Source: an uncultured Phycisphaerales bacterium (GTDB taxonomy: Bacteria > Planctomycetota > Phycisphaerae > Tepidisphaerales > Tepidisphaeraceae). Taken from it: a stretch of 64,000 bases of DNA. The stretch covers positions 1 to 64,000 of the forward strand of contig CAWJPJ010000006.1 in assembly GCA_963844715.1 (NCBI GenBank), written 5' to 3'. The notes beneath the pieces were generated by a model that saw nothing but the letters and a program-made list of their open reading frames with translations, made no database searches and had not been told where the DNA came from. The translations under genes and the position numbers were made by a program. This document shows positions 3,001 through 43,542 of this stretch, in pieces; within the stretch, counting starts at the first letter, position 1; each line of letters opens with the position of its first letter.

Positions 3001-6000
3001 ATGACGCCACGAATTATTACTATCGCGTTACCGCGACGGTGAATGGTCCCAACGGACCCGAGACGACTTATCCTTCGGAGGAGGCCGATGCGAACTTGAC
3101 CAGCGTTGCGGCCCCGACGAACTTCGAGACATTACAGGCGACCAGTGTCGCCGCCGATCACGTATCACTGAGCTGGACGTATCCCGATCCAACTTTATCG
3201 CCGGGCGCCGCGCCGGATGAATATGGATTTGACGTTTATAGCCGGGTTCACGACACCTCCACATGGACGCTGCTGGCGACTCTTGATCCTACGCAAACGA
3301 CGTTCACGGACTATACGGTCGACGCGGGCACCACATATGATTATGAAGTCACCGCATTTAATTACATGCCCCGGGTGTCCAGCAAACGGCTTCCGATACC
3401 TTGCTTAATGTCGCCGTGCCCGGCCTGGGTTCCAACCCACCGACCCCGCCAGGCGCGCCGGCATTAATCTCGCCCCAGGAGCCATACGATGTGTCCATTG
3501 AGTGGGCGGCCGGACAGAATCCACCTTCGGGCTATACGCTCGAGTATTTGATTTATAGAGAGTCGTCCTCTTCGGGGCCCTGGACGCTTCTCGATCCGGG
3601 CGGCCAAACCGGCACCACATTCACCGACAGTTCGGCGTTGCCCTCGAGCAGCACCGCTAATCCACAAACTTATATTTATGAGGCTCGCGGCTTCTACTCC
3701 AACGGAACGTCCACATACGTATCCGCGGCGTCAGGCACGTTGACGATAACGATGCCCCTGGCCAATACGCCGCAGGTCTCGATCAGCACTAATGATATTC
3801 CAGGATCGGGGAGTTCCGTCCCTGGCACGATCCCTCCGACGCTTAGTTCAATCACGGAGATCGATGGAGTCGCGACGGATGGAGGCGCGGGTCTGAGTCA
3901 GTGGACGCTGTATCTGGTGCCGACGTCTAACACCAATTTGGCAAATATTACAGTGGCGACCGGCTCCAACTCAATTGGCGCCTACAATGGTCCCGCTTCG
4001 TTCATTACAAATCTGAACCCGTCCCTGTATCCGGCCGGCACTTATGAACTTCTGCTTTCAGCCAATTTTAAGGAGAACGGCGGCGAGACCATAACGAGTT
4101 CAGAAGTGATTACGATCACCATTCCAACCCATGCGCAAATCGGCAACTTCACTCTGCCCGTCACCGATATGACCGTCAATGTCCCCGGTCAGGCGCCGAT
4201 CGTGATCAGCCGAACTTATGACTCGAGCAAAGCATCGGAAGCGGAAAGCCTTGGCTACGGTTGGCAACTGGATTTGTCCGGGGCGCAAGTCCAAACGACG
4301 GCTACCGGCAACGCCTTTCAATTCGGCGATCTGATCTACATCACGCTGCCCGATGGGGAGCAGCACGTCTTCCAGTTCATACCGGCTCCGGACAACTACG
4401 AAACAACCGGCGACCCCAATCCCCTTGACTACTACAACGTAGAGTTTGGCAACTATGCCCCGAGTTTTGTTTGCGTCGACGGAAGCGGCGCCAAACTCAC
4501 CGTTGGTGGCGAAAACGACTTTGACCTCAGTTACGTTGACGGCCAGTTCATTAATCAAACCACGGGCGACCCCTTTGACCCGCTCACCAGCGGCACGTAC
4601 ACCGTGACCACCACCGACGGCACCGTCTACACCTTTGCCGCCAGCATGAGCAACCCGGGCACGCTGGAAAACTCGGTCGATGCCAATGGCAATGAGACCA
4701 ACTACAATTTAGACGGTGGAACAGTCATCCAAAGGGGCGGCGTTTCCGTCCATATCAACTACGAGAGAATTGACGCCGCCGGCAATTCGATCGATGTCAT
4801 TGGTTCCATCACCGCCGGCAACCAAACCGTCAACTATTTTTACGACGCCGATGGAAATCTGGAATACGTTCAGCAGCCGCAAACCCCCGCCGGCAATTAC
4901 ACCTTCACTTATGTTTATAACGATCCCGCCGACCATTACCTGAGCTCTGTTAAGAACGGCTTGAACAACACGGTCATCACGATCGGCTATGACCCGGCCA
5001 CCAATCTTTTCGACGAAGTCATAGCCGGCGGCGGCGCCGATACGTCTACCATCGCCACGGCGCTCAGACCGATCAGACCGACCAGGTCCTCACCGCCCCC
5101 AATAACAATTCCACCCAGGATATCTACGACAGTGAAGGCGACGTCATCGAGCAGATCCAAACCATCACCGATAGCTCCAACAACATCACCGGCTATCTCG
5201 TCACCTGGCACGCCTTTGACTATAGTTTTGCCAATATCGAATCGGCGGTCGAAGACGGGTTCAGCGGCGAGAATTTCCTCGCCGGCGAAACCGATTACGT
5301 CCCCTACATGGTTTCCGGCACCGATCCCGCCGGCCAGCGCGTATAAGCAACCGGCGGAATTACAGATTTCGCAGCAAACCGAGTATTACCAAACCACTGA
5401 CGATGCGAACCCGGCCGATTTCGGCCTGGTCAAGTCCGTTTCCGTCCTCGGCGCCAGCGGCGCGCTGGAGACCACGACGTATTCCAATCCCACGGGGGCG
5501 CCGGAATACATCGACGGCAATCCCGTTTACGTCGAAGACCCGCAAGGAAACATCACCCACAATTTCTACGACGCCGGCGGCAACCTGCCTCGAGACGCAG
5601 GTCCACGATTCAAAGGGCGATCTCCTCAGCGATTCCATCTATACGTACACGACGACCAGCGACTTCAACAATTACGGCGTTCCCGCCGGGCTCTTGATCA
5701 GCGAGTCCAGCCTCGGGCCCACCGGCCAGATGGTGCAGCAGTCGTACAACTCCTACTATGGCAATGATGTCGCCGCCTCCAGCCCCAGCTACGTGGCGGC
5801 CATTCCTTCCGGCAGCTTCGACGTGGCCGGCGAACTGGCCGGCACCACGGACGTCAGCGGCGTCACCCACTCTTACAATTATGACGCCGATGGGAATCAG
5901 ATCAGCGACAGCTATGTCTGGCACGATCCTTCCGCTCCCAACGACCCCTCGCAGGACGAAATCGTCACCACCACAACCGTCTACGACGCCGCCGGGCGGG

Positions 6001-9000
6001 TCATTTCCACGACCACCGGTACGGTCACCACTTTGAACAACGCGACCCTTGTGTCGGGCGTCACCACCAGCACCGATTACAACGCCGCGGGCCAGGTGGA
6101 ATCGACCACCGATGAATACGGCCAGGTCACCCAATACGTCTACGACGCCGACGGCAACCTCATCCAAACCCTCTATCCCGACAACACCAGCACGGAAACC
6201 ATCTACGATTCGGAAGGCAGAGCGATCCTGACCACCGATCGGCATGTCGTGGGCGACTCCGGGAATGCCACACTCACTGTTTATAACAGCCTGGGCCAGG
6301 TTGCCGAGACCCAGCGCGTCGCCGACGTCGCCGCAACCGTCGGCGCGGTATCCGGAATGACTGGTGTGGACCAGGTCACGGCGGTCAGCGGCGCCGGCCT
6401 CACTTCCACGGAAACCGGCGGGATTTACGTCTGGGCCGTGAACCCGACTTTCACCGGCTGGTTCTCGCAGACCAGCACCACCTATAACCCCGACGGCACG
6501 GTCGCCAGCACCACGGATGCGGACGGCCTGACCACGGACTACACCTATTATCCCAACGGCCAGCAGGAAAGCGTCACGCAGGTGAGCGTTCCGGTGTATG
6601 GCGCGACTGGCGGCGTCGAAAACCTCACCACGACCTACCAGTACAACTCCATGGGCCAGCAGAGCGACGTGACCGATCCCCTCGGCAACACGACCTCGTA
6701 TGAATATGATCCCCTCGGCCGGCTGATCTCCACCGGCTACGCCCCGGCGGTCAGCGTGGGGTCCACCTCCCTCGTCTCGACCACGACCAGCGAAACCTAC
6801 GATCCGGCGGGGAATAAGATCACCGAGACGGATCAGCTTGGCCGGGTCACGCAGTATAAGTATGACGATGCCGGCGATCTGATTGAAGTGGATCAGCCGG
6901 AGGTTTTGAACCCGGCCACCAATACGATGACCCCGCCGACGACGAGTTACGTCTACGATCAGTACGGCGACGAGTTGATGCAGATCGACGCCAACGAACA
7001 GGCGGCGTATCAGGCCTGGATCAGCGCCGGCAACACGCCGGAAAGCTTCGCCGGCCCGGCCACGCGGTATACCTACAATGCCCTCGGCCAGGAAACCTCG
7101 GAAACGCTCCCCGACGGCGAGCAGGAAACGACCCAGTACGATCAATTCGGGCGTGTTTCCTACTCCGTCGACTTCGACGGGAACGTGACGGCTTACACCT
7201 ACGACGACTCCGCCACCGGCGACGGCCGCGTGACGGGAGAATATTTCTTCCTCCCCGGTGTCGTGTTCGAAAGCAACAGCGGCGCCGTCATCACGACGAA
7301 CGCGTCGGAGAGCACAACTTACACTTACACCTTGCTCGGGCAGCAGGAGAGCGTGACCGACTCGAGTCCCACCGCGCCTATACCGCCGATGGCGCGACGA
7401 CTTACACATACGACGCCAGTGGTAACGTGATTGAGGAAAACACGCCGGAAGGGATTATCAATTATTATTACAATGCCCTGAACCAGCAGACGGACATGTG
7501 GACGGGGAACGTCACGTATGCCAATCGCGACACCGCCGAGACGTGGACGCAATATGGCTACGATTCCCTCGGCCGCCTGACCACAGTGACCCAAAGCCGC
7601 CTCAATGACCAAACCGTGAATCTGGTGACCACCTACGCCTACGACGCCAACGGCAACAAAGCCTACGAAATGGACCCTAATGGGGACATCACCACGTATG
7701 TATATGATGCACAGAATCGCCTCACCGGCGAGTTGGTCAAGAATGGCAGCACGACGCTTTATAGCGGCAGTTACATCCTCAACGCCGACGGCACCAGAAA
7801 GTCCGACTCCGAGACGGAGTTACAGCCCGGCGGGACCACGGCGACCCTATCTACGACATGGACGTATGACGCCCTGGACCGGCTGACGGGGGAGACGATC
7901 ACCAGCAGCTTGTCGGGCGGAAGCCAGACCGAGACCTGGTCGTACGATATGGACGGCAACCGGGTGAAGCAGGTCAAGGTCGCCGGCGGCGTGACCGACA
8001 CCACGACTTACACGTACAACGGCGACGACCAGATGACCCAACAGGTGGACAGCGCCACCGGGACCACCACGTTCGGGTATGACGCCAATGGCAGCCAGAC
8101 CAGCAGCACCAATGGCAGCGCCGTCACGACGTACGCGTACAATGTGCGCAACCAGCTCAGCAGCGTCACGACCGGCGGCGTGACGACCAGCTACCAATAT
8201 GATGACTCCGGTAACCGGGTGAGCGAGACGACCGGCGGCACGACGACTTACTACCTGATCGACGCCAACAACCCGACCGGCTATCCCAAGCCGATCGAGC
8301 AGTGGGTCAGCACGACGGGCAGCAGGTCCACCGCCACGTTGAGCATGAGCTACATCATCGGCGACCGGGTGCTGGCGCAGGCGAACAGCGGCGGCGCGGT
8401 GAGCTACCTGCTGGTCGATGGCCAGGACAACACGCGGGCGCTGGTCAACTCGTCGGGCGCGGTGACGGCGGTGTTCAACTATGACGCCTTCGGCAACCCC
8501 ATCGGCTCGTGGAGTCTGACCACCGCGCCGACGACGATCCTGTTCCAGCAGACGATGGTTGACCCGGCTTCGGGGTTGAACTTCGACGGGGGTCGTGAGG
8601 AAAAGATCGGGCAGGACAGCTTCATCGAAGCCGACCCGCCAGGTTACAGCAGCAACCAGAATCCGATCACGCTGAACTCGTACCTGCTGGACGGCGCGGA
8701 TTCGATCAACATGGTGGACTCGAGCGGACACGACTTTGGTCTAGGCGACATCTTATTGTCTGCCGGCATTGACTCCGAATTAGATTCAATTGAGTTCACC
8801 GGCTTCTCGGCGGCCTTCAAAACGGTACAAGGCGTTCAGGATGGAGAAAGCGCGAACCAGATTTTTGAAGGCTTCCTTATCGACCAAGCGCTCCAGGTCA
8901 CCGCGATCGTCGGCCTCGCTGCTGCCGGCAAATTGCTTGGCGGGCTAATAGATGGCAGTTTAGCAACAGCGCTTACTAACGAAGCTTCAAACCCTGCGGA

Positions 9001-9457
9001 GCAAGCGACAACGCTGGCGGAAAGTGAAATAGCAAACTCATTCTCCAACTTGGGAGCCGGGTTTGCCGAGAATAATGCGACCGCGCTGAATGAGTTCCCG
9101 GCTGGCTCAGCCTTCTCCGGTGTATACAATCCAGAGACAGGGCGCTTTCTGGCATACCCGAGCGGCGATACCTTGCTGGCTGATGGATCAGTTCCGCTGA
9201 ACAGGGTTGCGCGAAGAGCCGGTCACGGCATCGTCAATAACGTGTTCAGCCAACTGATCGGGGTAGACCCTACTTCAAATCTGGGCTTTACGTTATTCCG
9301 GGAAGACGATGGGACGTTCTCCGTCGAATGGTTTTCTGGCAGTGTCAATGGTCCGAACCCATCATTCGAAGGACCTATAGTGCCAGTGTCGATGCGGCCG
9401 CAGGTCATCAATGCGATTGAAAATGCAACCGGGCGCACTGTTACATCAGAGGAGTAA
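1..9457 (+). CDS. Giant Rhs/YD-repeat polymorphic toxin (5' end outside window; split by indels). SdrD-B-like and Ig-like domains, FN3 repeats, Rhs core, C-terminal Ntox43-like toxin.
   Basis: Consecutive ORFs 70-429, 446-1774, 1701-3467, 3401-5767, 5403-7430 and 7427-9457 form one domain series: DTDGNGQWDPGEP (SdrB-like), PTGLTAT...YYY.V.A (FN3), ISRTYDS, many YDxxGN repeats, cleavage-type motif NMVDSSGHD. The tip FSGVYNPETG...RRAGH...WFSGSVN resembles Ntox43 from memory. The paralog at 38.9 kb lacks the ~7375 frameshift. Confidence 0.88.
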
Positions 9458-9906
9458 TGGATATGGCTATTCAGGTCAGTGGTCTTCCCCTTCCGGCCGC
9501 TCTAGTGGCCGCATTGGAAAACGGCGTCTGGCAGACGCCTAGAACCCCGACTGTGTGGCAATCGCTCTTCCCGCACACAAAGGCGCGTCATGCTAAACTG
9601 TATAGTCTGAAAATGATCCAAAGCGAGAATGCTTCTTGGCCCAATGAGTCACGTCCTTTCTATGTTGGACGGGCGGACGAACATCGTCCGCCCGGTGACA
9701 TCGACCCTGCCAAGTCGCTTCTGATTGCCGATCTCGGTCCCGACAAGATGATTGCCTTGGATTACCGGGAGTCGTCGAGTCGCCCGTCAGTTCTGTATAT
9801 TACTGATGACCCGGATGGGTCAACTCGGTGGATTAGAGTTGCGCCCGACATCGAAACATTCATTCGCGCACTCGGCCTCGAAGCGGTGGGAACCCAAACG
9901 GGTTGA
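9457..9906 (+). CDS. SMI1/KNR4 (SUKH) family immunity protein
   Basis: Coupled to the toxin stop (TAATG). LPLP near the N-terminus and IALDYR...PSV...VAPDIETFI at the C-terminus fit SUKH. Confidence 0.8.
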   Translation: MDMAIQVSGLPLPAALVAALENGVWQTPRTPTVWQSLFPHTKARHAKLYSLKMIQSENASWPNESRPFYVGRADEHRPPGDIDPAKSLLIADLGPDKMIALDYRESSSRPSVLYITDDPDGSTRWIRVAPDIETFIRALGLEAVGTQTG

Positions 9907-9947
9907 ACTGCGCACCATCCTGCGTTAGGTCTTCTCCTCATCACCCT

Positions 9948-10288
9948 TCTATGAGCCGAGCCGTGTCAAGTGTGTTGACGTTGCCAGGGAGCGAGTCGGT
10001 CGTTTTAACCTTCTATTCAGAGCTTCCGCGTCCGGCATGGCGGAAGGGCAAGCCCTCCGTTTGTGCCGGGAATCGCGGGCCTATTCAACTGTACAATGCG
10101 GCAGGATGCGGAGGGCAAGCCCTCCGAATGCCCGCCAGCGCGACGCCCATTCTGTAGCGCGAGCTTTGCGAAGGGTTTTGCGCCTCCGATGGCTCAGGGA
10201 CGACAACGGGCTGTCGCTGATGACGACCGGCAAACTCCGCCAACGCAACATCATTGACCTTTCCTCTTTAGCTGCCTTCTTCCGATCA
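9948..10288 (-). ncRNA. Predicted bridge/seekRNA region of IS element A
   Basis: Minus strand carries GTCGTCCCT (10204-10196) and GCTACAG (10158-10152), matching both halves of target GTCGTCC-CT-GTAGC, plus ATAGAAG (10016-10010), matching the IS end and core. Transcript boundaries unknown. Confidence 0.75.
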
Positions 10289-11365
10289 TCACGCCGGCGT
10301 CGGCATTCCCGTCGCCGCCGCGTGGTCTTTCCAATCGGTTCCATCGCGCAACATGGCCCACAGCTTGACCAGCAGCCTCCGGGCCACGGCGACGATGGCA
10401 ATCTTCTTTCGCTTGTCGCTGCCGCGGCGGACGTTCTCATACACCTGCTTCATCCAGGTGTTGGCACGCACGCCCAGCCAGGCGACCTCCACCAGCAATC
10501 CCCGCAGCAGGCGGTTGCCGGCGTGGCTGATGTGGCCCTGGCGATCGCTTTCGCCGCTCTGCCAGCGCCGTGGTGTCAGGCCCGAATAGCTGCTGACCTG
10601 CCGGGCACTCTTGAAACGATGGGGATCGTCGATGATCGTGACCACCGCCTCGCTGAGGCGCGGGCCGACCCACGGGGCGGTCCTCAATTGCCTGACGCGC
10701 TGATCCGCCCTGGCCAGTTCCGCCAGCTTCAATTCCACCTGCCTGATCTGTTCTTCCAATCCCTCCAGCAGCTTGAGTTCCACATGCAACTGGAAACGCC
10801 ACAACTGTTCCGCCGGCGCTGACGCATCCTGCGCCGCCTTGCTCCATTCGACGATTCCCGCCGCCGCCCAGGCTTTGTCACCGGCGGGCAGCTTCAAACC
10901 CTGGCGCTCGAAGATGGCGCGGATGTTGTTCTTGATCATGGTTCTTCGGCCCACCAGGCCGTGGCGGTATTCGATAAACGACCGCCATTGCCTCACCTTC
11001 GTCGCCGGCATGTGGACCGTCGGCAGGCATCCCATCTCCGACATCTGCGCCAGCTTCAGGGCATCGGTGCGGTCGGTCTTGTTCTTCACCAGCTTCCACT
11101 GCCAACGCTGGTCGTTGGCGTTGGCGACCTGGATCGGGATGCCCAGTGTTTCGGCTAGGTCGTGCACCCATCCCGCCGCCGGTCCCGCCTCAATCACCAG
11201 GCGGTCGGGGGCGCGGTGGGTGAGCAAGTCGTGAATGGCAGCGGGATCAGTGGCCACCTTGCCGAACTCATGTTCGGCGGCTTTGCCTTCCATCGTGCCG
11301 TGATCGGTGATGTAATCCACAAAAACGCTCTTGTTCTTACCGAGATCGATGGCGAGAATCTTCAT
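10289..11365 (-). CDS. IS110 family DEDD transposase/recombinase
   Basis: MKILAIDLGK, VIEAG, KTDRTDA and SYSGLTP motifs; intact frame. Confidence 0.93.
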   Translation of the reverse strand: MKILAIDLGKNKSVFVDYITDHGTMEGKAAEHEFGKVATDPAAIHDLLTHRAPDRLVIEAGPAAGWVHDLAETLGIPIQVANANDQRWQWKLVKNKTDRTDALKLAQMSEMGCLPTVHMPATKVRQWRSFIEYRHGLVGRRTMIKNNIRAIFERQGLKLPAGDKAWAAAGIVEWSKAAQDASAPAEQLWRFQLHVELKLLEGLEEQIRQVELKLAELARADQRVRQLRTAPWVGPRLSEAVVTIIDDPHRFKSARQVSSYSGLTPRRWQSGESDRQGHISHAGNRLLRGLLVEVAWLGVRANTWMKQVYENVRRGSDKRKKIAIVAVARRLLVKLWAMLRDGTDWKDHAAATGMPTPA

Positions 11366-11490
11366 GGCCGAGTCCTTTCTCAAAGGATGACGTTTGAGCC
11401 GCCCCACGCGGGGTGAGCTCGTGTAATAACCGGAGATTTTATGCTCCGTGTTCAACGTCCCGAGGAAGGCTCGGCTTCATAGTTTCTGTA

Positions 11491-11560
11491 GCTCCGTCGC
11501 GTCGGCGTCGGCCCTCGCCCAGGAGCGCAGCGCCGGGGGCCGATGACGAGGCGATGGAGC
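11491..11560 (+). repeat. Conserved 27-bp-stem hairpin at the element left end (also 23569-23638 and 34075-34146)
   Basis: GCTCCGTCGCGTCGGCGTCGGCCCTCG pairs with CGGGGGCCGATGACGAGGCGATGGAGC; three copies in the window. Confidence 0.85.
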
Positions 11561-11714
11561 GCAAGGGCGATGATTCCCTGGTACCTCCAGAGCGGAGCGC
11601 TGAGGCTTCCGCTGAATCGGGATCGGCGGCTAAAGAAAAAACCGAGTGGTCCACCGCGCCCGCCGGCGTGCGCGTGTTGAGCGTTCAACCCACTTCTTTT
11701 TTAGCCGCGGTTGT

Positions 11715-12086
11715 TCAGGATGCTTTGGCCAGTGAGTTGATGAGACGAATGACGGCGCGCTGATCCTTGTGAGGCAGGCGCGTGACCTGGCGGAACTTCT
11801 TCCAGAGCCGGCGCACGTTGGGATCGTCCTGCTCGCTTCTTCCTTTAGTCGTCTTGCCGTTCTTCATGCCAAGCAGTTCATCGGCGCTGACGCCCAGGGC
11901 GTCGGCCAGTCTGATGATCGCGTCCACCGGGGGATAGTCGGCTTCGTTCTCGTAGTAGGTGATGGCGCGTTGCGTCGTGCCCAACGTCTGCGCGAGTTGG
12001 ACCTGGGTGATGTTGCGGGCCTTGCGCAGCTCGGCCAGCCGCCGACCAAAGCCGGTCTGTTCGGGTTGTCGGGCGATGCGTGGCAT
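11715..12086 (-). CDS. XRE-family HTH repressor (allele 1)
   Basis: RLAELRKARNITQVQLAQTLG...YYENE...LADALGVSADELLG; divergent from the primase gene. Start chosen by similarity to the other two XRE copies. Confidence 0.9.
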   Translation of the reverse strand: MPRIARQPEQTGFGRRLAELRKARNITQVQLAQTLGTTQRAITYYENEADYPPVDAIIRLADALGVSADELLGMKNGKTTKGRSEQDDPNVRRLWKKFRQVTRLPHKDQRAVIRLINSLAKAS

Positions 12087-12251
12087 GTCGTCGGTGATGG
12101 TAAACCGCATGGGAATCTTCTCCGCAAGAGGGGCGAGCGCTTGCAATATACGTTAACGCGGATACTCTCTTGCACGGATATTATCCATGAAAAATATTTT
12201 ACTTTCCAGCGGATATTGCTTGACCGGGTTCCACGGAAGGAAGGCAAAAGC

Positions 12252-15200
12252 ATGAAGCGCATCCCCGACGACGAGATTGAGCGGTTGAAGCGTGAGACGG
12301 ACCTGGCGGCGCTGGTGCGGGCGTCGGGGGTGGAGCTTGCGCCGCACGGGGCGGGCGGGGACCTGATCGGGCGTTGTCCGCTGCATGACGACCGCACGCC
12401 CTCCTTGGTGGTGACCGCATCGAAGGGGCTGTGGCACTGCCTGGGGGCGTGCGGCGTCGGGGGCAGCGCGATCGACTGGATCATGCGGACGCGCAAGACG
12501 GGGTTCCGCTACGCCATCGAAATCCTTCGGGAGATTAACGGCGCGGGCGCTGTCGCCGGCGGTGAGCCTGGTCGAACCGGGGGGACGGCGCCCGCGCCTT
12601 CTTCTTTGCCCAGGAGATTGCCCGCGCCGATCGCGTTCGACGCCGACGATCACCAGCTCATGCTGGAAGTGATCGAGTATTACCACAAGTGCTTGAAGCA
12701 GACGCCGGCGGCGCTGGCGTACCTGCAAAAGCGCGGGATCGGCAGCAGCGAAGCCGTCGAGCATTTTAGGATCGGCTTCGCGGACCGCACCCTGGGCCTG
12801 CGTCTTCCCAACAAGCAGGCGCAAGGCGGGAGCGGAGATCCGCGAGCGGTTGGAAAAGCTCGGCCTGTACCGGGACACCGGCCGCGAGCACTTCAACGGC
12901 TGCGTGGTGTTCCCGATCATCGACCCTCAAAGCGGCCGCGTGACGGAAATGTACGGGCGGAAGATCGGCCCGCAGTTCCGGGGCCTGCCGATTCATCTGT
13001 ACCTGCGCGGGGAGCACAAGGGGGTGTGGAACGAAAGCGCCCTGGCGGCGTGCGAGGAAGTGATCTTGTGCGAGTCGATCATCGACGCCTTGACGTTCTG
13101 GTGCGCGGGGATGCGCAACGTGACGTGCAGCTACGGGGTGCACGGCTTCACCGCCGATCACCTGGCCGCGTTCAAGCGGCACGGGATCAAGCGGGTTCTG
13201 ATCGCGTATGACCGTGACGACGCCGGCGAGAACGCCGCGGCGAAACTCTGGCCGCGACTGACGGCCGAGGGGATCGAGTGCTTCGGGGTGCAGTTCCCCA
13301 AGGGGATGGACGCCAACGAATACGCGCTGAAGCTCCTGCCGGCGAGCAAGAGTCTGGACCTGGTGGTGAGGCAAGCGCTGTGGCTCGGTAATCCCGGCGC
13401 GCCGGGATCGCGGCCGTCGCCGGCGATGACGGCGGAGATACAAGAGGCGGCTAAAGAAAAAAGTGAAGGGGCAGCGCCGGCGTTGTCGTCGTCATCGGAT
13501 GCGCTCGAGCCTTTGCCTTCCGATCCTCCAACATCCGCGCCGCCGGCGTCGTCACTTGATGCAACGAACGAAATGACCGAAGAAGAAACAACGGGTACGC
13601 CGGCGTCACACGATCACACGCCGGCGTGCTCACTCTCTGTTGATCCCGCGCCGTTGCCGGCGTTTGTTCCAGCCGCGGCCGTTCCCGCGCGCCGCCGGCG
13701 TTCCCGCCCCTGCCTTCCTCTTTAGCTGCTGATCCTGGCTTGCTCGATGCGCCGGAGTCTGAGCCGCCGGCGGCATCGCCGTTGCCGCGTGCTTCCGCGC
13801 CGCCGGAGGTGCCGGCGGAGGTCAAGGAACAGGAAATCATCATCACGCTGGAAGGCCGGCGTTACCGCATCCGGGGCATGAGCAAGAACCTGGGCTTTGA
13901 CGCGCTGAAGGTGAACGTGCTGGCCAGTTGCGGGGAACTGATGCACGTGGACACATTGGACCTGTACGCTCACCGCTCGCGCAAGCAGTTCGCGGCGGAC
14001 GCGGCGCGGGAGCTTCGGCTGGAGGAAACCTTGCTGCGCCACGACCTGGGCAAGGTGCTGCTCAAGCTGGAGGAGTTGCAGGAGAAGCAGATCGCCGAGG
14101 CCACCAAGCCGAAGGAAAAGACGGTGAAGATCACCGATGCGCAGGCGCGACGCGGCGCTGGAGCTTCTTAAATCGCCCGATCTGCTGGACCGCATCCTGG
14201 CCGACTTTGAGCGCTGCGGCGTGGTGGGCGAAGCCACCAACAAGCTGACGGGGTATCTGGCCGCCACGAGCCGCAAGCTGGAGCAACCGCTGGCGGTCGT
14301 GCTGCAATCCAGCAGCGCCGCCGGCAAATCCTCCCTGATGGAGGCGGTGCTGGCGATGCTGCCGCCGGAGGAAGTGACCAAGTTCAGCGCCATGACCGGG
14401 CAATCGCTGTTCTACATGCAGGGGTCGGACCTGCGCCACAAGGTGCTGGCGATTGTCGAGGAGGAAGGGGCGGAGCGCGCCAGCTACGCATTGAAGCTGC
14501 TGCAATCCGAGGGCGAGTTGACCATCGCCTCCACCGGTAAGGACCCGCAGACGGGCCGGCTCGTCACCCAGGAGTACCGTGTCGAGGGTCCGGTGATGAT
14601 CTTCCTGACGACGACGGCGGCGGAGATTGACGAGGAGTTATTAAACCGCTGCCTGGTGCTGAGCGTGAGCGAGGATCGCGAGCAGACGCGGGCCATTCAC
14701 ATCATGCAGCGCAAGCGCCAGACCTTGGCCGGCCTTCTGGAACAGCGGGAGCGCGCGGCGGTGCTCGCGGTGCACCGGGACGCGCAGCGGCTTTTGTATC
14801 CGGTGCTGGTGGCCAATCCCTTCGCGGACCGGCTGACGTTCCTGGACAGCCGCACGCGCAGCCGGCGGGACCATGTGAAATACCTGACGCTCATTCGCAC
14901 GGTCGCGCTCCTGCACCAGCACCAGCGGGAGCACAAGACGGTGGAGCATCCGCCGGCGTCGGGGCAGTTCGTGGAGTACATCGAGGTCACGCCGGGGGAC
15001 ATCGCCATCGCCAATCGGCTGACGCATGAAGTCCTGGGGCGCTCACTCGATGAGCTGGCCCCGCAGACCCGGCGCTTGTTGGTCATGCTCGATCAGCACG
15101 TCATGGGCGAGTGCCAGCGGCGGAAGATGCCGCGGAGTGATTACCGCTTCACGCGGCGGCAGGTGCGCACGTTCGCCGGCTGGACGGACTTCGTGGTGCG

Positions 15201-15649
15201 GACGCACCTGCAAAAGCTGGTGGACCTGGAGTACGTGCTGGTGCATCGCGGCGGGCGCGGTCAGTCGTTCGTGTACGAGCTTCTTTACGGCGGGGAAGGG
15301 ACTGACGGCAAACCGTTCGCCCTGGGCCTGATCGATCCCGACAGCCTGGGAAACTCCGCTTACGTTGAAAAGTTCGAGCATCAAAACAGCCGGTTCGAGG
15401 GGGGTTCGAGCCTCCATAGTGCCCCCATTGAGCCGGGTTCGTGCGCACGAAAGCGCCGAATCTCCCGGCAATCACGGGCCGGAATCCACGTCCAGCGCGG
15501 AAGCGGTCAAAATCGCGCCTCGGGAGACGCTTTCGGACGGCGCGCATCGTACCGATACATCAACGTACCCACCTTCTTCTTTAGCCGCCTCGACAAGCTC
15601 GGGACAGGCCGCCGATTCCAACGGCCAGGAGGTGGATCATGCCGCGTAG
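12252..15649 (+). CDS. CHC2 zinc finger-Toprim primase fused to AAA+/P-loop ATPase (frameshifted in assembly)
   Basis: [10 protein letters not shown]...WHCLGAC (CHC2); LCESIID and AYDRDDAG (Toprim); Pro/Ala linker; QSSSAAGKS (Walker A), LAIVEEE (Walker B), DEELLNR. Breaks differ from copy 2. Confidence 0.82.
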
Positions 15650-16917
15650 AGGCTGGCATCCCGGGCCAAGGGCGATCATCGGCGATCCCACCGACCCGCG
15701 CGGCATGGCCGCGCTGCGCGACCAATACCTGGACCACATGGCGGTGCTCAACTTCGCGCCCGACACCATCTACGTGCGGCGGGTCTACCTCAACTTCTTC
15801 GTCAAGTGGTGCCAGGAGCGCTCGGTCGTGCGCCCGGCGAAGTCACCAAGCCGATTGTGGACCGCTACCAGCGCTGGATGTATCAGTTCCGTTCTCCCAA
15901 GGGCAAGCCGCTGAGCTTCACCAGTCAGAACGGACGGCTGGCGGCGGTCAAGGCGTGGTTCCGCTGGCTGACGCGCTTCAACCATATCCTCTCCAACCCG
16001 GCATCCGATGTGGACCTTCCGCGCGTGGACCGCAAGCTGCCGCGTCACGTGCTGACGGCCAGCGAGGTCGATCAAATCCTCAACGGCACGGAGATCAAGG
16101 ACCTGCGCGGCTGAGGGACCGGGCCTTTTTGGAGACGCTCTACTCGACGGGATTGCGGCGGCGGGAGATGGTGAACCTGAGCATCTATGACGTGGACATG
16201 GAGCGCGGGACGGTGCTGGTGCGCAAGGGGAAGAACCGCAAGGACCGGATCGTTCCCATCGGCCAGCGCGCCATCCTGTGGCTGAGCAAGTACCTGTCCG
16301 AAGCGCGGCCGCAGTTGGCCCCCAACCGGGAGGAAGCCTTGTTCGTGACGCAGATCGGCGATCCGTTCACGGCCAACAGCGCCACGCAGCTTGCCCGTCA
16401 GTACGTGGAGAAAGCCAAGCTCCCCAGCGGCAAGCGCGGGGCGTGTCACCTGTTCCGCCACACGATGGCGACCTTGATGCTGGAAGGGGGCGCGGACGTG
16501 CGCTACGTGCAGGCGATGCTCGGCCACGCGGACATCAGCTCGACGCAGATTTACACGCACGTCGGCATCCGCACGCTCCAGCAGGTGCACGCGATCACGC
16601 ATCCGGCGGGCCTGGTCAAACGTCCGTCCAGCATCGGCGTTGCGGGCAATGTGTTGCCCGCTTACGGCGCCAACGAGGGATCGGACCTGCCGGACGTGCT
16701 GGTGGAAGATCCCGCGTGCCGGCGCGGGTTGAGGGAGGATCAACCGCTGCCGCGACCTGGGCGCGCGCCGCCGGTGAACGGGAACGCCGCCGATCTGGCT
16801 GACTTCCTGGCTCGTGATGATGACGATGACACCCTCGACGAGCTCGGGGCAGGCGACACCGGGGAAGCGGCCGGCGGCGCGGAAGTCGCGGCTTTTGGGC
16901 GCGCTGATGACGGCTGA
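15639..16917 (+). CDS. XerC/D-like tyrosine recombinase (frameshifted in assembly)
   Basis: RDRAFLETLYSTGLRRRE, VRKGK, HLFRH, LGHADISSTQIYTHV; start overlaps the primase stop. Confidence 0.88.
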
Positions 16918-17610
16918 TAGCGCCAACTTCCGAGCCGGCGCGGGGTTGCGTGGATCGACTATCAGCCGCGAAGCGGGCTATGAGCCGCAAGCTCCACTCG
17001 CTCGATCACTTACCGCCGCGGCTGATAGCCGCCTTTATCTTGCTCTACAACCTGACCCACTGGAAACCCACTGGGTCGCGGTTTTGGGCTAACTTCCCGC
17101 TCCGGTGGGACTTGCGAATCCCGCCGCCGCCGCGCAAGGTGCAAACACCTTGCCTCTCAAGGTCATAGGTTGCGCCAGGTCATGGCGGGACAGGGAGTTA
17201 CAAAAAGCGCACCTTGGTTCCTTTTACCTTGCCCTCACCCTTCAAACCTTCCTTCTTCTTCTTTTAGCTGCTGATTCAAACCCTCCGCTGTGCGCTGATC
17301 CGTCGTCGATCTGCGCGCTTCTCGTGCGCAGGCAGCCGCTATCCCACCCTCCTTAGCCGCCTCGTGGAGCGCACGTCTGCGCCGATCCTGCACACTGACG
17401 ACAGCTTGGGCGGCTAAAAAGGAAAGCTGTTGGAGCGCCGGATGCGCGGGTAAGATGCTCTCCCGACGTGCACGGCTGCGCCAACATCATCCTCCCTGGC
17501 CGTCGCCAGTTAAGCCGAAACCTGCCTCAAGGCGCGCAACGATCTGCGCGCCGATCGCGCCGGCAAAGTCGATCCTGTAACCGTTGGAAGGCATCGGGAT
17601 TGCGCGTTGG

Positions 17611-17638
17611 CTTGTTCCCGAATCGCATCGGACTCAAC
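17611..17638 (+). other. Putative recombinase site at the element right end (11-6-11 imperfect inverted repeat); identical at 29773-29800
   Basis: CTTGTTCCCGA-ATCGCA-TCGGACTCAAC, 7/11 dyad symmetry. Identity between copies stops 2 bp after it. Confidence 0.55.
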
Positions 17639-17722
17639 TAGTATTCCATGAGCAAACTTCTCCTGGGTTAAATTCTCCGGGAGTGTCGAGACCCGTTGGA
17701 CTTTTTTTGCGGGAGGTTTGCC

Positions 17723-19109: not shown

Positions 19110-19553
19110 TGCCTTCATTCCTCAAATCTTCTCTTTCTTCTTTTAGCTGCTAATCCAAGCCATCCGCTGCGCACCTGGTTGCCGCCGATCGCGTGATTCT
19201 GGTGGCCGGGAATGATCCCCGACGTTGCGCATGTGCGTGCGCGAACAGCAGCTATCCCACCCTGAGCCGCCTGATGGAACGCATGTCTGTTTGCACTGAT
19301 CATGCACACCGACGGCAGCCTGGGCGGCTAAAGAGGAAAGCTGTTGGAGGTGCTGGATGCGCGGGTAAGATGCTCTGCCGACGTGCACGATTGAGCCAAC
19401 ATCATCGCCCCTGGCCGTCGCCGGTTAAGCCAAAACTCGCCTCTGTGCGCTTCTCGATCCGTGCGCACCTGCGACGGCAAATCGATCCCGTAAGCTTCGA
19501 CGCGTGTCGGGCTTGCGCATCGGGAAGGATAAAACACGCGTCGGAATCAACTA
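19110..19553 (+). mobile_element. Diverged right-end remnant of the primase/recombinase element
   Basis: Aligns by eye along its length with 17230-17640 (e.g. GGATGCGCGGGTAAGATGCTCT) and ends in TCGGAATCAACTA. Confidence 0.85.
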
Positions 19554-21053
19554 TCCATACACATATGATCTCGATGGCAACCGTTTGACGGATGTCCACA
19601 CCGGTCCCGGCAACGGCGCCAGCGGAACCACCACGTACACCTATAATGCCAACGACGAACTGACCCAGTCGGTCGCCAATGGCGTGACCACAGCCTATGG
19701 CTACGACAACAATGGCAGCCAAATCAGCGTGACCGTCGGTGGCACCACGACGCAGACCGACTTCTACGACGTCCGGAACCGCCTTGAGAAAGTCGTGGAT
19801 AGCTTCGGAACGACGACTTATGTGTATGACGATGCGGGAAACCGGGTACAGGAGACTACCAACGGCACAACGACGTATTACCTCATCGACGATCACAACC
19901 CGACGGGATATTCCAAGCCAATCGAGGTGCGTGTCGGTTCTCTGACAGGTAACCCAACAACGACGTACATCCTCTCGGATCGGGTTTTAGCGCAGGCTAA
20001 CAGTTCGGGCGCGGTGAGTTACCTCGTCATCGATGGATTGGACAACACTCGCGCCTTGGTCAACTCGTCGGGCACGGTGACGGCGGTTTTCAATTACGAT
20101 CCTTTTGGCGACGTGGTGGGTGCGACCTACACGTTTTCGAGCCCGCCAGCGACCTATATCCTTTTCCAGCAGACCATGTTCGATCCCGCATCAGGGTTAA
20201 ACATCTTCGGCGACGGGCGCGAGAAGAGCAGCCTGGTGAGGACAATTTCATCGAGGCCGACTCGCCCGGTTACAGCAGCAACCAGAATCCGATCACGCTG
20301 AATACGTATCTGCTGGATGGCGCGGACACCATCAACATGATCGATCCGAGCGGACACGACTTTGGTCTAGGCGACATCTTATTGTCTGCCGGCATTGACT
20401 CTGAATTGAATTCAATTGAGTTCACCGGCTTCTCGGCAGCCTTCAAAACGGTGCAGGGCGTTGAGGAAGGAGAAAATGCCAATCAGATTTTTGAAGGCTT
20501 CCTGATCGATCAAGCAGTAGGGGCAGCTATCGGGCTCGGTGCAGGATTGGCGCTTGGGGCATTCGGGGCATTAAGAAACGGAGTTGACCTAGGCGCTTTC
20601 TTCGATGACATCTCATCCGTTTTCTCCTCGTCGGAGCAAGTGGCGACTCTTAGTGCAACGGATGTCGGAGACGTCTTGCGCGTACGGAAAGCCGGGCACA
20701 GTTGGCATTCAAGTAGCGGGCAGAATAACGCCTGAAGGGATGGCATCACTTACGATTCAGAACAATGTGGAATATGCATTGGTATACAAAGCTGGTTCTG
20801 GGCCCAATGGGGCTGGAGGCACATACATCCTATATTCAGGAACAAAGAATAGTGTAAGTGTGCCGGTGGCATCAGATAGCTTTTTGATTTACCATACTCA
20901 TCCGCAGGGGAGCCCAGCTGCAAGTGACGCAGACCAAGCTGTCTTGCAGGCGTTGCGGTTGAGCGGATCCCCCCATGCTCGTCCCAGATAATCCCAATTG
21001 GCGGACAACCTTTTTCTTTCACCGAGACGATTTATAATAAATCTCGGAGTTAA
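19552..21053 (+). CDS. Orphan Rhs cassette 1 with JAB/MPN-motif toxin (5'-truncated, frameshifted)
   Basis: Begins YPYTYDLDGNR; DPSGHD; tip VEYALVY...HTHPQGSPAASDAD. Pieces 19504-20301, 20337-20735, 20605-20991. Confidence 0.75.
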
Positions 21054-21056
21054 ATT

Positions 21057-21283
21057 ATGACTGCCGAAGTGCAACGAGAATTTGAATCACTATGGACCAC
21101 CGAGAGGTGCACTACGGCATTATCGGTGCCGTGGTCCTGATTTTCGCGATAATCAACTACTTATCGTGAACAAAAAAACAAAAATGGCAACAATCATTGA
21201 GAATAATGAAATATATACGGAGGTCATTGGGAAAAATGCGCGAAGCGGGAGTTCCGATAGTTTACACAATGCCGAACGAGTGA
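21057..21283 (+). CDS. Putative immunity protein of cassette 1 (frameshifted)
   Basis: Small AT-rich ORF directly after the toxin; reconstructed MTAEVQREFESLW...KMREAGVPIVYTMPNE. Confidence 0.5.
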
Positions 21284-21392
21284 TCAGTATGAGGAAGTAA
21301 GGATATAAAAGAAGGACATAAGAGGGTCATGTCCAGAAGTAACCACTGATTACGCAAGCTAAGCGGTGTGGTGATATGCGGATGTAACTAGT

Positions 21393-23231
21393 ATGCAACT
21401 CGACGAAAACGCCGCCACCGATTCCTACGACGCCAACGGCAACAAGGTCTATGAATCCGATCCCAACGGCGATATCACCACGTATGGCTACTCTGACAAT
21501 CGTCTAACAAGTGAGACCGTCAAGAAAGGAAGCAACACGCTTTATAGCGTCAGTTACATCCTCAACGCCGACGGCACCAGAAAGTCCGACTCTGAGACTG
21601 AGTTACAGCCCGGCGGGACCACGGCGACCCTATCTACGACATGGACGTATGACGCTTTGGACCGGCTGACGGGGGAGACGATCACCAGCAGCTTGTCGGG
21701 TGGAAGCCAGACCGAGACCTGGTCGTACGATATGGACGGCAACCGGGTGAAGCAGGTCAAGGTCGCCGGCGGCGTGACCGACACCACGACTTACACGTAC
21801 AACGGCGACGACCAGATGACCCAGCAGGTGGACAGTTCCGCCGGGACCACCACGTTCGGGTATGACGCCAACGGCAGCCAGACCAGCAGCACCAACGGCA
21901 GCACCGTCACGACGTACGCGTACAATGTGCGCAACCAGCTCAGCAGCGTCACGACCGGCGGCGTGACGACCAGTTACCAATATGATGACTCCGGCAACCG
22001 GGTGAGCGAGACGACCGGCGGCACGACGACCTACTACCTGATCGACGCCAACAACCCCACCGGCTATCCCAAGCCGATCGAGCAGTGGGTCAGCACGACG
22101 GGCAGCAGGTCCACCGCCACGTTGAGCATGAGCTACATCATCGGCGATCGGGTGCTGGCGCAGGCGAACAGCAGCGGCGCGGTGAGCTACCTGCTGGTCG
22201 ATGGCCAGGACAACACGCGGGCGCTGGTCAACTCGTCGGGCGCGGTGACGGCGGTGTTCAACTATGACGCCTTCGGCAACCCCATCGGCTCGTGGAGTCT
22301 GACCACCGCGCCGACGACGATCCTGTTCCAGCAGACGATGGTTGACCCGGCTTCGGGATTGAACTTCGACGGGGGTCGTGAGGAAAAGATCGGGCAGGAC
22401 AACTTCATCGAAGCCGATCCGCCAAGTTACAGCAGCAACCAGAATCCGATCACGCTCAACTCGCACCTGCTGGACAATGCCGACGCAATCAACGTCATCG
22501 ATCCGAGCGGGCATGACGGACTCGATGAGCTTTTGGTCGGGCTTGGTGTTGCCACTGAAATAGGATTGGCGATTCTAAATAGCGCGGTTGTGACATCGCT
22601 GGTGCAGGCGGTGGCGACCGTTTCGCTGATCGAATTCGCGATCAATCCGGACTTCCAACAAAGCATCATTGCCGCAACCGGCGGCGATCTTACGAATTTG
22701 ACCGAGGTATTTGCGGGAGGCGTCAGCTATTTTGCGAATCTGGGAACAGTTGGGCAAACGGAGGCCGAGAGTACCGCGGCATTCGTGTCTAGTTTTGCTC
22801 CGGCGGCTGCTCGGGGATCGGACGCCGTGGTGCTCGACGTCGCGGCGATGCGGAACTTCTTCCTTGCTCGCGGACTGTCCACGGAGGCGGCAGATGGCTT
22901 TGCAAGCTCATTTAGCAATGGGATGGGCGTCTTGCGCGAGGTCAAAGCGGGCGAAACTTTCCTTCGATATTCCGACGAAGCAGGTAATGCCGTGGGAAGC
23001 TTCCTGACCAAAACTGCATATCCGACGCCGTCACAAGCGGTAGGTGCGTTAAACCTGGAGGACTTTAACAACGGAGCAACGCTGGTTCAGCAGGTAACGG
23101 CCACTCAGGATACGTATGTTTTGGAAGGCGGAGTTGCGGGTAGTGATTCGAACGCATACCAGGCAATTGCCGTTGACCAGAGCGCGTTCACCTATGGCCC
23201 GAGAGTCCCCACTGGGAGCAATCCGCCATGA
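21393..23231 (+). CDS. Orphan Rhs cassette 2, possible TNT/ART-like toxin
   Basis: Core from 21540 is near-identical to main gene 7757-~8690; DPSGHD; tip FLRYS...GSFLT...LNL...VLEGGVAG...YQ. Confidence 0.8.
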   Translation: MQLDENAATDSYDANGNKVYESDPNGDITTYGYSDNRLTSETVKKGSNTLYSVSYILNADGTRKSDSETELQPGGTTATLSTTWTYDALDRLTGETITSSLSGGSQTETWSYDMDGNRVKQVKVAGGVTDTTTYTYNGDDQMTQQVDSSAGTTTFGYDANGSQTSSTNGSTVTTYAYNVRNQLSSVTTGGVTTSYQYDDSGNRVSETTGGTTTYYLIDANNPTGYPKPIEQWVSTTGSRSTATLSMSYIIGDRVLAQANSSGAVSYLLVDGQDNTRALVNSSGAVTAVFNYDAFGNPIGSWSLTTAPTTILFQQTMVDPASGLNFDGGREEKIGQDNFIEADPPSYSSNQNPITLNSHLLDNADAINVIDPSGHDGLDELLVGLGVATEIGLAILNSAVVTSLVQAVATVSLIEFAINPDFQQSIIAATGGDLTNLTEVFAGGVSYFANLGTVGQTEAESTAAFVSSFAPAAARGSDAVVLDVAAMRNFFLARGLSTEAADGFASSFSNGMGVLREVKAGETFLRYSDEAGNAVGSFLTKTAYPTPSQAVGALNLEDFNNGATLVQQVTATQDTYVLEGGVAGSDSNAYQAIAVDQSAFTYGPRVPTGSNPP

Positions 23232-23515: not shown

Positions 23516-23774
23516 GACGTGGGCGGCGCTTTCTGTCTGTCACAAGAGGTACTCCCGTCGTCCCTGTAGCTCCGTCGCGTCGGCGTCGGCCCTCGCCCAG
23601 GAGCGCAGCACCGGGGGCCGATGACGAGGCGATGGAGCGCAAGGGCGATGATTCCCTGGTAGCTCCAGAGCGGAGGCGCTGAGGTCCGATATCCAGATCG
23701 CGCGATGCGCCGGCGTGCGCATGTCGATCGCTCAACCCCACTTCTTCTTTAGCTGCGGTTCGAGACGCGTGGAA

Positions 23775-24170
23775 TTACCCGGCCCTCTTGCCGCTGTGTT
23801 GGACGGCCAGCGCATCAATGAACTTCAAAACGGCCTTCTGGTCGTGCGCCGGCATCCGCTCAAGCAACTGCATACGTCGATAGATGCGCCGGCTGATGCC
23901 GTTGCCGCCGGCGTTGTGAGATTGCGCGGGCGCGATGCCCAACAACTCATCGGCGGTGACACCCAAAGCCTGGGCGAGTTGGCCGACCATCGCGGCGTGG
24001 GGCCTGACGCGGCCGCATTCATAGCTGGAGATAACGGCCTGGATCGTGCCGGCCTTCTCGGCCAGTTCGACCTGGGTAAAGCCGCGTTCTTTGCGCAGAC
24101 GCGCCATCGTCTGGCCGATTGTCTCGGCCTCGGTCTTGTTGCGCATCGGGCTGTGAGCGGTCCTGGGCAT
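23775..24170 (-). CDS. XRE-family HTH repressor (allele 2)
   Basis: MARLRKERGFTQVELAEKAG...SYECG...LAQALGVTADELLG. Confidence 0.9.
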   Translation of the reverse strand: MPRTAHSPMRNKTEAETIGQTMARLRKERGFTQVELAEKAGTIQAVISSYECGRVRPHAAMVGQLAQALGVTADELLGIAPAQSHNAGGNGISRRIYRRMQLLERMPAHDQKAVLKFIDALAVQHSGKRAG

Positions 24171-24318
24171 GGGATCGATTATACGGGCGACTCCGCGCAG
24201 CCGGCGTTTGGCCGTCTTGCAAATACAATAGGACGTTGTAATACTGGTGCCGGTATGAAGTCCACAACAAAGCCGTGTAAATGCTCTTGACAGGGTTCCA
24301 CGGAAGGAAGGCAAAAGC

Positions 24319-27300: not shown

Positions 27301-27822
27301 CCGCGGAGTGATTACCGCTTCACGCGGCGGCAGGTGCGCGCGTTCGCCGGCTGGACGGACTTCGTGGTGCGGACGCATCTGCAAAAGCTGGTGGACCTGG
27401 AGTACGTGCTGGTGCATCGCGGCGGGCGCGGTCAGTCGTTCGTGTACGAGCTTCTTTACGGCGGGGAAGGGACTGACGGCAAACCGTTCGCCCTGGGCCT
27501 GATCGATCCCGACAGCCTGGGAAACTCCGCCTACGTTGAAAAGTTCGAGCATCAAAACAGCCGGTTCGAGGGGGGTTCGAGCCTCCATAGTGCCCCCATT
27601 GAGCCGGGTTCGTGCGCGGGTGAAAGTGAAGAATCCCCCGGTCCCGCCGGGTCCGAACGCGCCGATAGCGCAAACGGCTTCGAAATCGCGCCGCGGGAGA
27701 TGCCTTCGGACGGCGCGCAACGTACCGATGCATTGTCGTACCCACCTTCTTCTTTAGCCGCCTCGACAAGCTCGGGACAGGCCGCCGATTCCAACGGCCA
27801 GGAGGTGGAGCATGCCGCGTAG
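24319..27822 (+). CDS. CHC2-Toprim primase-AAA+ ATPase fusion, copy 2 (frameshifted in assembly)
   Basis: Pieces 24319-25035, 24996-25547, 25605-27200 and 26932-27822; same motifs as copy 1. Confidence 0.84.
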
Positions 27823-29090: not shown

Positions 29091-29152
29091 TAGCGCCAAC
29101 TTCCGAGCCGGCGCGGGGTTGCGTGGATCGGCTATCAGCCGCGAAGCGGGCT

Positions 29153-29254
29153 ATGAGCCGCAAGCTCCACTCGCTCGATCACTTACCGCCGCGGCTGATA
29201 GCCGCCTTTATCTTGCTCTACAACCTGACCCACTGGGTCGCGGTTTTGGGCTAA
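29153..29254 (+). CDS. 33-aa hydrophobic small peptide (possible type I toxin)
   Basis: MSRKLHSLDHLPPRLIAAFILLYNLTHWVAVLG*. Copy 1 (from 16980) has an 11-bp insertion. Confidence 0.35.
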   Translation: MSRKLHSLDHLPPRLIAAFILLYNLTHWVAVLG

Positions 29255-32474: not shown

Positions 32475-32531
32475 CTTTAACGGGCCGCTTGCTTCATCAA
32501 GCCAGTCGTAACATTCTCCCCCGTCGTCCCT

Positions 32532-40956: not shown

Positions 40957-40968
40957 AACTGAGGAACG

Positions 40969-43526: not shown

Positions 43527-43542
43527 CTGTGGTGGCAACCAT

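Follow-up and report, generated by a model that had tools for sequence, protein, structure and literature searches.

How does an insertion sequence (IS) of the IS110 family find the place at which it inserts, and to what extent can this be read from its own non-coding DNA? The question is raised by a stretch of 64,000 nucleotides (nt) from an uncultured Phycisphaerales bacterium (the window, i.e., positions 1 to 64,000 of contig CAWJPJ010000006.1 in assembly GCA_963844715.1), in which two copies of one element, here called IS A and IS B, occur together with an unoccupied copy of the target site. An earlier note on this DNA had proposed that IS A encodes readable guides 3' of its transposase gene. 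According to the analysis described here, IS A is very probably an IS1111-type element with a structured seekRNA or bridge RNA, the first loop of which would guide to the target and the second, less securely, to the element's own ends, transcription probably being driven by a promoter at the junction of these ends. The element and its parts are located in the window as follows.

9946 to 11485, minus strand: IS A, 1,540 bp with one copy of the AG core at the right end; ends set via the empty site and IS B.
32530 to 34069, minus strand: IS B, with a broken transposase frame (first stop at codon 212), sitting in a complete target site.
10289 to 11365, minus strand: transposase (recombinase) gene of IS A, 358 amino acids (aa) with a DEDD (RuvC-like) and a Tnp domain and the motif GLTPRRWQSG, assigned by profile searches.
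11468 to 11482, minus strand: left subterminal inverted repeat CTATGAAGCCGAGCC, 15 nt, lying 3 nt (AAA) inside the left end.
9949 to 9962, minus strand: right subterminal inverted repeat GGCTCGGCTCATAG, 14 nt; the AAG that comes next (9948-9946) contains the AG core.

The encoded protein matches the Pfam families PF01548 (DEDD_Tnp_IS110; 32.4 bits, cut-off 29) and PF02371 (Transposase_20; 72 bits) as well as the NCBIfam model NF033542, named 'IS110 family RNA-guided transposase' (205.7 bits versus a cut-off of 140). Among bridge recombinases with solved structures, ISCro4 (PDB 9t56, E 2e-14) and IS621 (PDB 8wt6, E 4e-12) were matched, mostly in the C-terminal domain, where the matches take in the GLTPRR..SG stretch. 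Parts of Siddiquee et al. (2024, PMC11187229) characterize IS1111 elements by a GL-P----S(T)G motif, subterminal repeats of about 7-17 bp and a long non-coding region downstream of the gene. In IS A, GLTPRRWQSG fits this motif in the C-terminal domain, the two subterminal repeats, each 3 nt from its tip, pair with each other (14 of 15 positions, one indel), and the non-coding DNA comprises 343 nt 3' of the gene (10288-9946) versus 120 nt 5' of it. By these sequence features, IS A is an ordinary and well-preserved IS1111-type member of the IS110 family, which differs from the stated values in its left extension of 3 nt (AAA; 5 with the core) instead of the 7 bp of ISEc11 and in its protein of 358 aa instead of the 330-350 aa of IS1111 transposases (both from parts of PMC11187229), these being typical values and not strict criteria.

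The comparison of the empty with the filled site leaves an ambiguity of only 2 nt at both junctions, AG in transposase sense and CT on the plus strand, which is the core; a target duplication at insertion is absent in this comparison. Because AG is common to both ends, the span of IS A can be given as 11485 to 9946 or as 11487 to 9948, and the limits 9948-11485 proposed earlier had to be corrected, since both core copies lie outside them when IS A is set against the empty site and against IS B. In transposase sense, the left flank ...GACGGAGCTACAG is common to all three copies of the element in the genome, and the element then starts with AAACTATGAAGCCGAGCC; the right end of IS B reads ...GGCTCGGCTCATAGAAG and is followed by GGACGACGGGGG. 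The third copy is situated on the same contig outside the window (G000:C6:535717-536962), ends at element position 1248, lacks the 3' non-coding (RNA) region and has a frame that stops at codon 156. Among the three genome copies compared, IS A is the sole one with an intact transposase frame. IS B is identical to IS A at 100% over the first 300 nt from the right end, which include both guide loops. Over the BLAST alignment as a whole the two copies are 98.8% alike, compared with 87% for their left flanks, which argues for separate insertions. For IS A and the third copy, the flank is 99.5% identical over 558 nt, and the two may go back to one event.

How such an element would recognise its target is indicated by two short segments of the 3' non-coding region and by the site that they match.

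10196 to 10204, minus strand: 5' target guide GUCGUCCCU, 9/9 against the empty site and the right flank of IS B.
10152 to 10158, minus strand: 3' target guide GCUACAG, which has the same sequence as the left half-site with core (GCTAC plus AG) on the top strand and therefore pairs with the bottom strand.
23557 to 23570, plus strand: empty target site GTCGTCC-CT-GTAGC, free of the element; GCTAC-AG-GGACGAC in element orientation.

As DNA, in transposase sense on the minus strand, the guides are GTCGTCCCT at 10204-10196 and GCTACAG at 10158-10152. Reverse-complemented, the first gives AG+GGACGAC, i.e., the core and the right half-site, and the second agrees at 7/7 positions with all four left flanks and, together with a following AA, at 9/9 with the filled left junction. 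Read in transposase sense, the empty site is GCTACAG / GGACGACGGGAG, and the guide pair jointly spells both strands of this 14-bp site with the 2-nt core as overlap. The proposal that guides in the 3' non-coding region specify a 14-nt target found empty at 23557-70 is thus supported by position, by a shuffle test and by covariation in relatives, and the empty site itself was confirmed on the plus strand. Its further statement that the guides are aimed at the element's left end is to be replaced, as their target is the insertion site and a separate second loop matches the element ends. With regard to the '7+CT+5' layout of IS621, the geometry holds when read on the strand opposite the transposase, and the order of the guides is the reverse of that in IS621. 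In IS A, the top-strand-complementary GUCGUCCCU is located 5' and the top-strand-identical GCUACAG 3', which corresponds to the IS1111 seekRNA order, where the top-strand match precedes the bottom-strand match (parts of Siddiquee et al., 2024, PMC11187229); in IS621, the left target guide (LTG) pairs bottom-left and the right target guide (RTG) top-right (parts of PMC11208160).

Both in the window (23557-23570, plus strand) and in the 4.55-Mb assembly, the 14-mer GTCGTCCCTGTAGC is present a single time. Taken alone, its match is unremarkable, at least one match with up to two mismatches being present in 47 of 100 shuffles. The core-anchored pair is a different matter. It was defined as a 9-mer complementary to one side, then a 7-mer identical to the other, within 80 nt, and was found in none of 20,000 dinucleotide-preserving shuffles of the 341-nt region, where the maximum was 13 bases compared with the 16 observed. 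Across both strands of the 64 kb, the score of 16 was reached in 5 of 1,274 sliding 341-nt segments, each of which overlaps the non-coding region of IS A or that of IS B. The AA (10151-10150) after the 3' guide equals the first two bases of the element and is a candidate handshake guide, a concept from IS621 (parts of Hiraizumi et al., 2024, PMC11208158). AAU follows the 3' guide in most relatives, i.e., in four of five compared, and AAGGAU in the other.

Guides of this kind are expected to be exposed in a folded RNA, and the fold of the minus strand that had been suggested as a check places both segments opposite each other in one internal loop, between an outer and an inner helix.

10140 to 10217, minus strand: predicted target-binding module, with the outer helix formed by 10217-10208 and 10148-10140, the guides as internal loop and the inner hairpin at 10195-10159.

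In the minimum free energy (MFE) structure and the pair probabilities, the outer helix consists of GCGAC-A-GCCCGUU with AAUGGGC-GUCGC and the inner hairpin of (C)UGAGC...GCUCG, and the same helix-loop-helix appears in the MFE folds of 101-, 141- and 341-nt stretches. Pairs were counted for two helices of four pairs each in the alignment A3, which comprises six elements: pairing is kept in 47 of 48 cells, and compensatory changes occur in 5 of the 8 pairs. Neither the observed pairing nor the covariation score was reached in 500 shuffles, and no more than 53% of cells pair in slid controls. As A3 is out of register in the distal outer helix, this part was excluded from the count. A3 was made without L070, MAFFT having misplaced the window's loop in A1 (whole non-coding regions) and L070 in A2. 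Likewise, the RNAalifold consensus of the six elements, for which no structure was supplied, shows the same two helices with both guide stretches unpaired, and the covariance model R1, built from A3, matches the module with 41.6 bits (E 8e-8). A search of 9700-11700 against Rfam release 15 with E up to 1 yielded three chance-level matches (RefA5, MIR918, sR41); since all three lie outside the guide region, no Rfam family covers this RNA.

Whether the loop segments follow the insertion site was examined in 73 related loci from GTDB species representatives, which share at most 54% protein identity and are mostly Planctomycetota. A search with a fixed end motif recovered few of these loci, and a general inverted-repeat search set the ends in 25 of the 73 (L055 probably being spurious), which corresponds to 11 usable element types. 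Six of these 11 types with both ends set match their own flanks at the homologous loop positions.

L021 family: 5' guide CGGACACCU, 9-10 nt in L021 and L020 and 7 in L022; 3' guide UUAAG.
L027: 5' guide CUGACCCCU, 9/9 against the right flank; 3' guide UAAUUAAG against the left flank.
L050: 5' guide 9/9 against the right flank; 3' guide UAAAG.
L067: 5' guide CCGCUCCCU, 9/9; 3' guide CGACCGUaAG, 9/10.
L011 family: 5' guide UCGUGcAUUU, 9/10 (by eye); 3' guide CACGAAAAU, 9/9.
L070: 5' guide CAGUCCU, 7/7; 3' guide GCGAG.

Outside the training set, R1 matched L053, L006 and, weakly (E 0.23), L004 among 50 loci, as well as L077 and L078, which were obtained from a metagenome scan with the right-end sequence.

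L006: right 10/10, left 6/7.
L004: left 7/7; on the right a 7-nt block that two mismatches separate from the core.
L053: right 8/9, right flank only.
L077: right 9/9, right flank only.
L078: right 8/9 plus one G-U, right flank only.

Accordingly, at least one guide tracks the flank in 11 related element types, and both guides do so in eight of them. In a 9 x 9 matrix of loops versus junctions, the own junction scores best in every row, with a diagonal of 13-19 (mean 15.9) and an off-diagonal mean of 7.5; the sole high off-diagonal score, 14, links L021 to L050, whose targets are nearly identical. The complementarity of the guides, their position in a loop, the covariation of the helices and that of guides with flanks are computed results.

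A second module occurs between the target-binding module and the right end of the element, and here the question turns from the target to the ends themselves.

About 9990 to 10100, minus strand: second module, candidate donor-binding loop, a helix-loop-helix with 5' side, inner stem-loop and 3' side.
10092 to 10087, minus strand: ACAGUU of the 5' side, followed by the conserved GAAUAGG (10086-10080).
10016 to 10010, minus strand: AUAGAAG of the 3' side, equal at 7/7 positions to the terminal nucleotides of the right end, core included.
9964 to 9969, minus strand: TTGACA, a candidate -35 box, 18 nt from the right end and at the same place in relatives.

With moderate confidence, the second module can be regarded as the donor-binding loop. 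Relatives carry AUAGGAG, AUGGAAG or AUAGUCG in the 3' side where their own right ends read so. The assignment is less secure than that of the target loop because the 5' side is weak, ACAGUU pairing at only 5 of 6 positions with left-end bases 2-7 and leaving the core uncovered. This leads to the strongest alternative, namely that the RNA acts through its first module alone, as a short seekRNA, while the second serves as a scaffold for structure or protein binding and recognition of the ends depends on flanks and subterminal repeats. It would agree with the weak 5' side and with two statements in parts of Siddiquee et al. (2024, PMC11187229), i.e., that an 82-nt seekRNA is sufficient for ISEc11 and that circles form only with intact target flanks. 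A mere scaffold does not explain why the 3' segment repeats the terminal 7 nt on the right and why its AAG, GAG, GGAAG and TCG versions follow the ends of the relatives. In L004, moreover, AGUU is changed to AGCU opposite a left end that reads AAGCT instead of AAACT. We therefore consider the first-module explanation unlikely, though it is the alternative to be taken most seriously, and retain the two-loop RNA.

In the linear element, no sigma-70-like promoter was found. In the joined form, a -10 candidate, albeit weak (3/6), would come to lie at 17-nt spacing from TTGACA, and the promoter is probably completed via this box when the ends join in the circle, in analogy to the junction promoter described for ISEc11 in parts of PMC11187229. 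The mechanism proposed for IS A would then proceed as follows. The 343-nt region 3' of the transposase gene would encode a structured guide RNA, whose first internal loop would hold the two guides, each with the AG core; because both guides include this core, the complex of recombinase and RNA would recognise GCTAC-AG-GGACGAC, and recombination would take place at the core without target duplication. The second loop would recognise the joined ends, AUAGAAG representing the right end with the core and ACAGUU the left-end bases 2-7, and the promoter would assemble on joining of the ends in the circle, after which the RNA would be cut from a long transcript. That the RNA is made, bound by the protein and directs strand exchange is what we infer by analogy with the experimentally studied systems.

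Several points, besides the incomplete pairing of ACAGUU, weigh against this two-loop guide RNA. No RNA sequencing runs containing DNA of the element were listed. The fold energy is not significantly below that of shuffles (z -1.84 for the non-coding region as a whole, -0.72 for the second module), and the helix statistics come from only six sequences. The MFE fold contains a few weak pairs between the two guides, which are expected because both guides hold the core and its complement. Among the relatives, the ends could not be set in 48 of 73 loci, of which only the R1 matches L004, L006 and L053 were examined further, and five types of a Pirellulaceae group (L032, L035/L054, L036/L037, L039, L040) yielded neither a clean guide pair nor an R1 match; the guide layout of this group may be other than the simple two-loop form. 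Finally, the right flank of IS A, the copy with the sole intact gene, reads AG-GG-TGATGAGG and fits the 5' guide at no more than 4 of 9 positions.

Two of these points, the unobserved RNA and the fold energy no better than that of shuffles, would suit an explanation in which the protein alone recognises the target, as classical site-specific recombinases do, and the matching segments are coincidental. Coincidence is difficult to reconcile with a core-anchored pair that never arose in the 20,000 shuffles and with loop segments that change with the target in 11 related elements, five of them outside the training of the model; moreover, transposases of the IS110 family were found by experiment to be RNA-guided (parts of PMC11187229 and PMC11208160). 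Recognition by the protein alone is accordingly highly improbable. Still less credible is that the matches are scars of a former flank, left by imprecise excision or recombination and without guiding role, for although the left-flank match extends 2 nt into the element (GCUACAG plus AA) like a copied junction, the pieces are on opposite strands with a conserved hairpin between them, at fixed positions in a conserved helix-loop-helix, and the same arrangement recurs with other sequences in distant relatives (at most 54% protein identity), whose loop segments were checked for flank tracking and do track.

The guide RNA reading thus stands, and the deviating right flank of IS A calls for an explanation of its own. 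The statement that both IS copies occupy the site applies fully to IS B, which has both half-sites, and only in part to IS A, which has the left half-site and AGGG, after which the flank is unrelated (GGTGATGAGG instead of GGACGACGG). The gap between the element and the neighbouring open reading frame (ORF) amounts to 40 nt at IS A, where the upstream ORF is of the SUKH immunity type, versus about 285 nt at IS B, and the end of an RHS ORF is separated from the empty site by 326 nt. In view of these gaps, a deletion adjoining IS A would be the simplest account of its flank. Contigs from four DNA runs of one study, one of which is possibly the source of the assembly, were compared with 9000-12500, and neither an empty IS A site nor a circle junction was present among them. 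Two soil-run junctions absent from the assembly were recovered: in one, the right end of the element is followed by GGACGATGG, which agrees with the guide at 8 of 9 positions; in the other, the left-flank module occurs without the element, with unrelated DNA directly after the core. Three loose-end sequences from the contigs were not found in the assembly; the loose-end consensus was taken as abutting the named place at the right end, as confirmed by the known junction of the third copy. The cut of this copy at position 1248 and its join show a rearrangement at the right part of the element. Its cut end joins sequence of RHS-like composition (judged by eye only), and this junction recurs in one contig of run X3.

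What kind of sequence the target belongs to can be asked of the same genome. The left half-site has four copies in the 4.55-Mb assembly (85% complete), three filled and one empty, and all four end a conserved stretch downstream of paralogous XRE-type HTH genes.

11486 to 11610, minus strand: conserved stretch of about 125 nt ending in the left half-site, 3' of the XRE-HTH gene 11715-12146; four in the genome.

Because all four copies share this paralogous context, the site is a low-copy paralogous sequence and not the widespread functional repeat that had been suggested; the parallel drawn with integron attC is an analogy only. Indels break every reading frame of the stretch of about 125 nt on the transposase strand, and no tRNA genes were found anywhere in the window. 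Two of the XRE-HTH genes start a unit of about 6.2 kb, which occurs twice (11486-17640 and 23564-29802; 80-96% identity, spacing about 12.1 kb) inside an RHS array and, besides this gene, comprises a primase-like ORF of the CHC2 zinc-finger type and an ORF of 926 aa in which a Phage_integrase domain was recognised. Either an integrative element or a portion of a segmental duplication may be present here; a core common to the site and the far end of the unit was not found. In its first copy, the CHC2 primase-like ORF is seemingly frameshifted.

RHS-repeat genes or fragments with variable C-terminal parts extend over 5400-9906, 19500-23231, 29630-32246, 34621-36102 and 37040-44500, and a SUKH-1/SMI1-KNR4 immunity-type ORF (9457-9906) follows one RHS gene. 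Every copy of the IS target in the window is located directly downstream of an RHS cassette. The homology among copies of the left-flank module ends at the AG core or within 10 nt of it. Since it stops so near the core, as in the right flank of IS A and in the two soil-run junctions, and since joins of different half-sites are expected where bridge-type recombination or excision has acted besides insertion, the element could be seen as a specialised parasite of one boundary sequence near XRE genes, which in two copies starts the 6.2-kb primase/integrase unit, and its RNA-guided recombinase would also have reshuffled the RHS toxin array. This extension of the guide RNA reading is doubtful, and we would not expect it to hold.

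Some side observations concern the relatives and the remainder of the window. In the Pirellulaceae group, the 3' non-coding regions measure 600-850 nt, right ends read CATAGTCG with an echo AAUAGUCG in the RNA, and UAAAGAAU-like segments occur twice (seen in L036). At L006:1365-1380, about 45 nt upstream of the left end, an inverted copy of the element's own target-like sequence (CACGAA motif) is present, and the target of L006 may be part of a palindromic repeat. Far from the element, a tandem array with a period of 306 bp (60409-61825; five copies, 62-71% identity) is contained in a 1,344-aa ORF on the minus strand (59255-63289).

To the guide RNAs of IS1111 type the locus adds a natural case that is well resolved and stems from a poorly studied lineage of a soil metagenome. 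Together, the empty site, the filled site and the covarying relatives help to define the programmable loop positions in IS1111-type systems, about which less is known than about IS621. The NCBI family model NF033542 already names the protein an RNA-guided transposase. The picture of the mechanism remains unchanged, and IS A is very probably a clean example of what was described in 2024.

A fixed insertion position is familiar from other members of the family: IS4321/IS5075 and the IS1111-attC group, which belong to the IS1111 family, each use a single insertion point within another multi-copy genetic unit. IS A resembles them in its fixed position in the sequence of another multi-copy unit, whereas the sequence it targets, neither an attC site nor the terminal repeat of a transposon, closes the stretch of about 125 nt near XRE genes.

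With the IS621 bridge RNA, as presented in parts of Durrant et al. (2024, PMC11208160) and of PMC11208158, the predicted RNA of IS A shares a target loop and a candidate loop for the ends, with guides that include the core. Further likenesses are guides of 9 and 7 nt around a CT core, possible handshake bases and a homologous recombinase. In contrast to IS621 as described there, the RNA of IS A is encoded at the right end and not at the left, the core reads AG in transposase sense, the guide order is reversed, long subterminal repeats are present and the 5' donor guide does not contain the core.

The closest counterparts are the IS1111 seekRNAs of ISEc11, ISPa11, ISKpn4 and ISPst6 (parts of Siddiquee et al., 2024, PMC11187229), which have the same location of the guide RNA downstream of the transposase gene. 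According to these parts, the elements feature subterminal repeats, GL-P----SG and no target duplication, yielded no internal promoter and carry TTGACA near the right end, where the junction promoter would form, all of which applies to IS A as well. Compared with ISEc11 in the same source, IS A, which is known from sequence alone, has the extension of 3 nt (5 with the core) instead of 7 bp and a transposase of 358 versus 330-350 aa. Judged by protein identity, it is a new element: its best relative among GTDB species representatives reaches 54%, and the clade of IS A occurs mainly in Planctomycetota.

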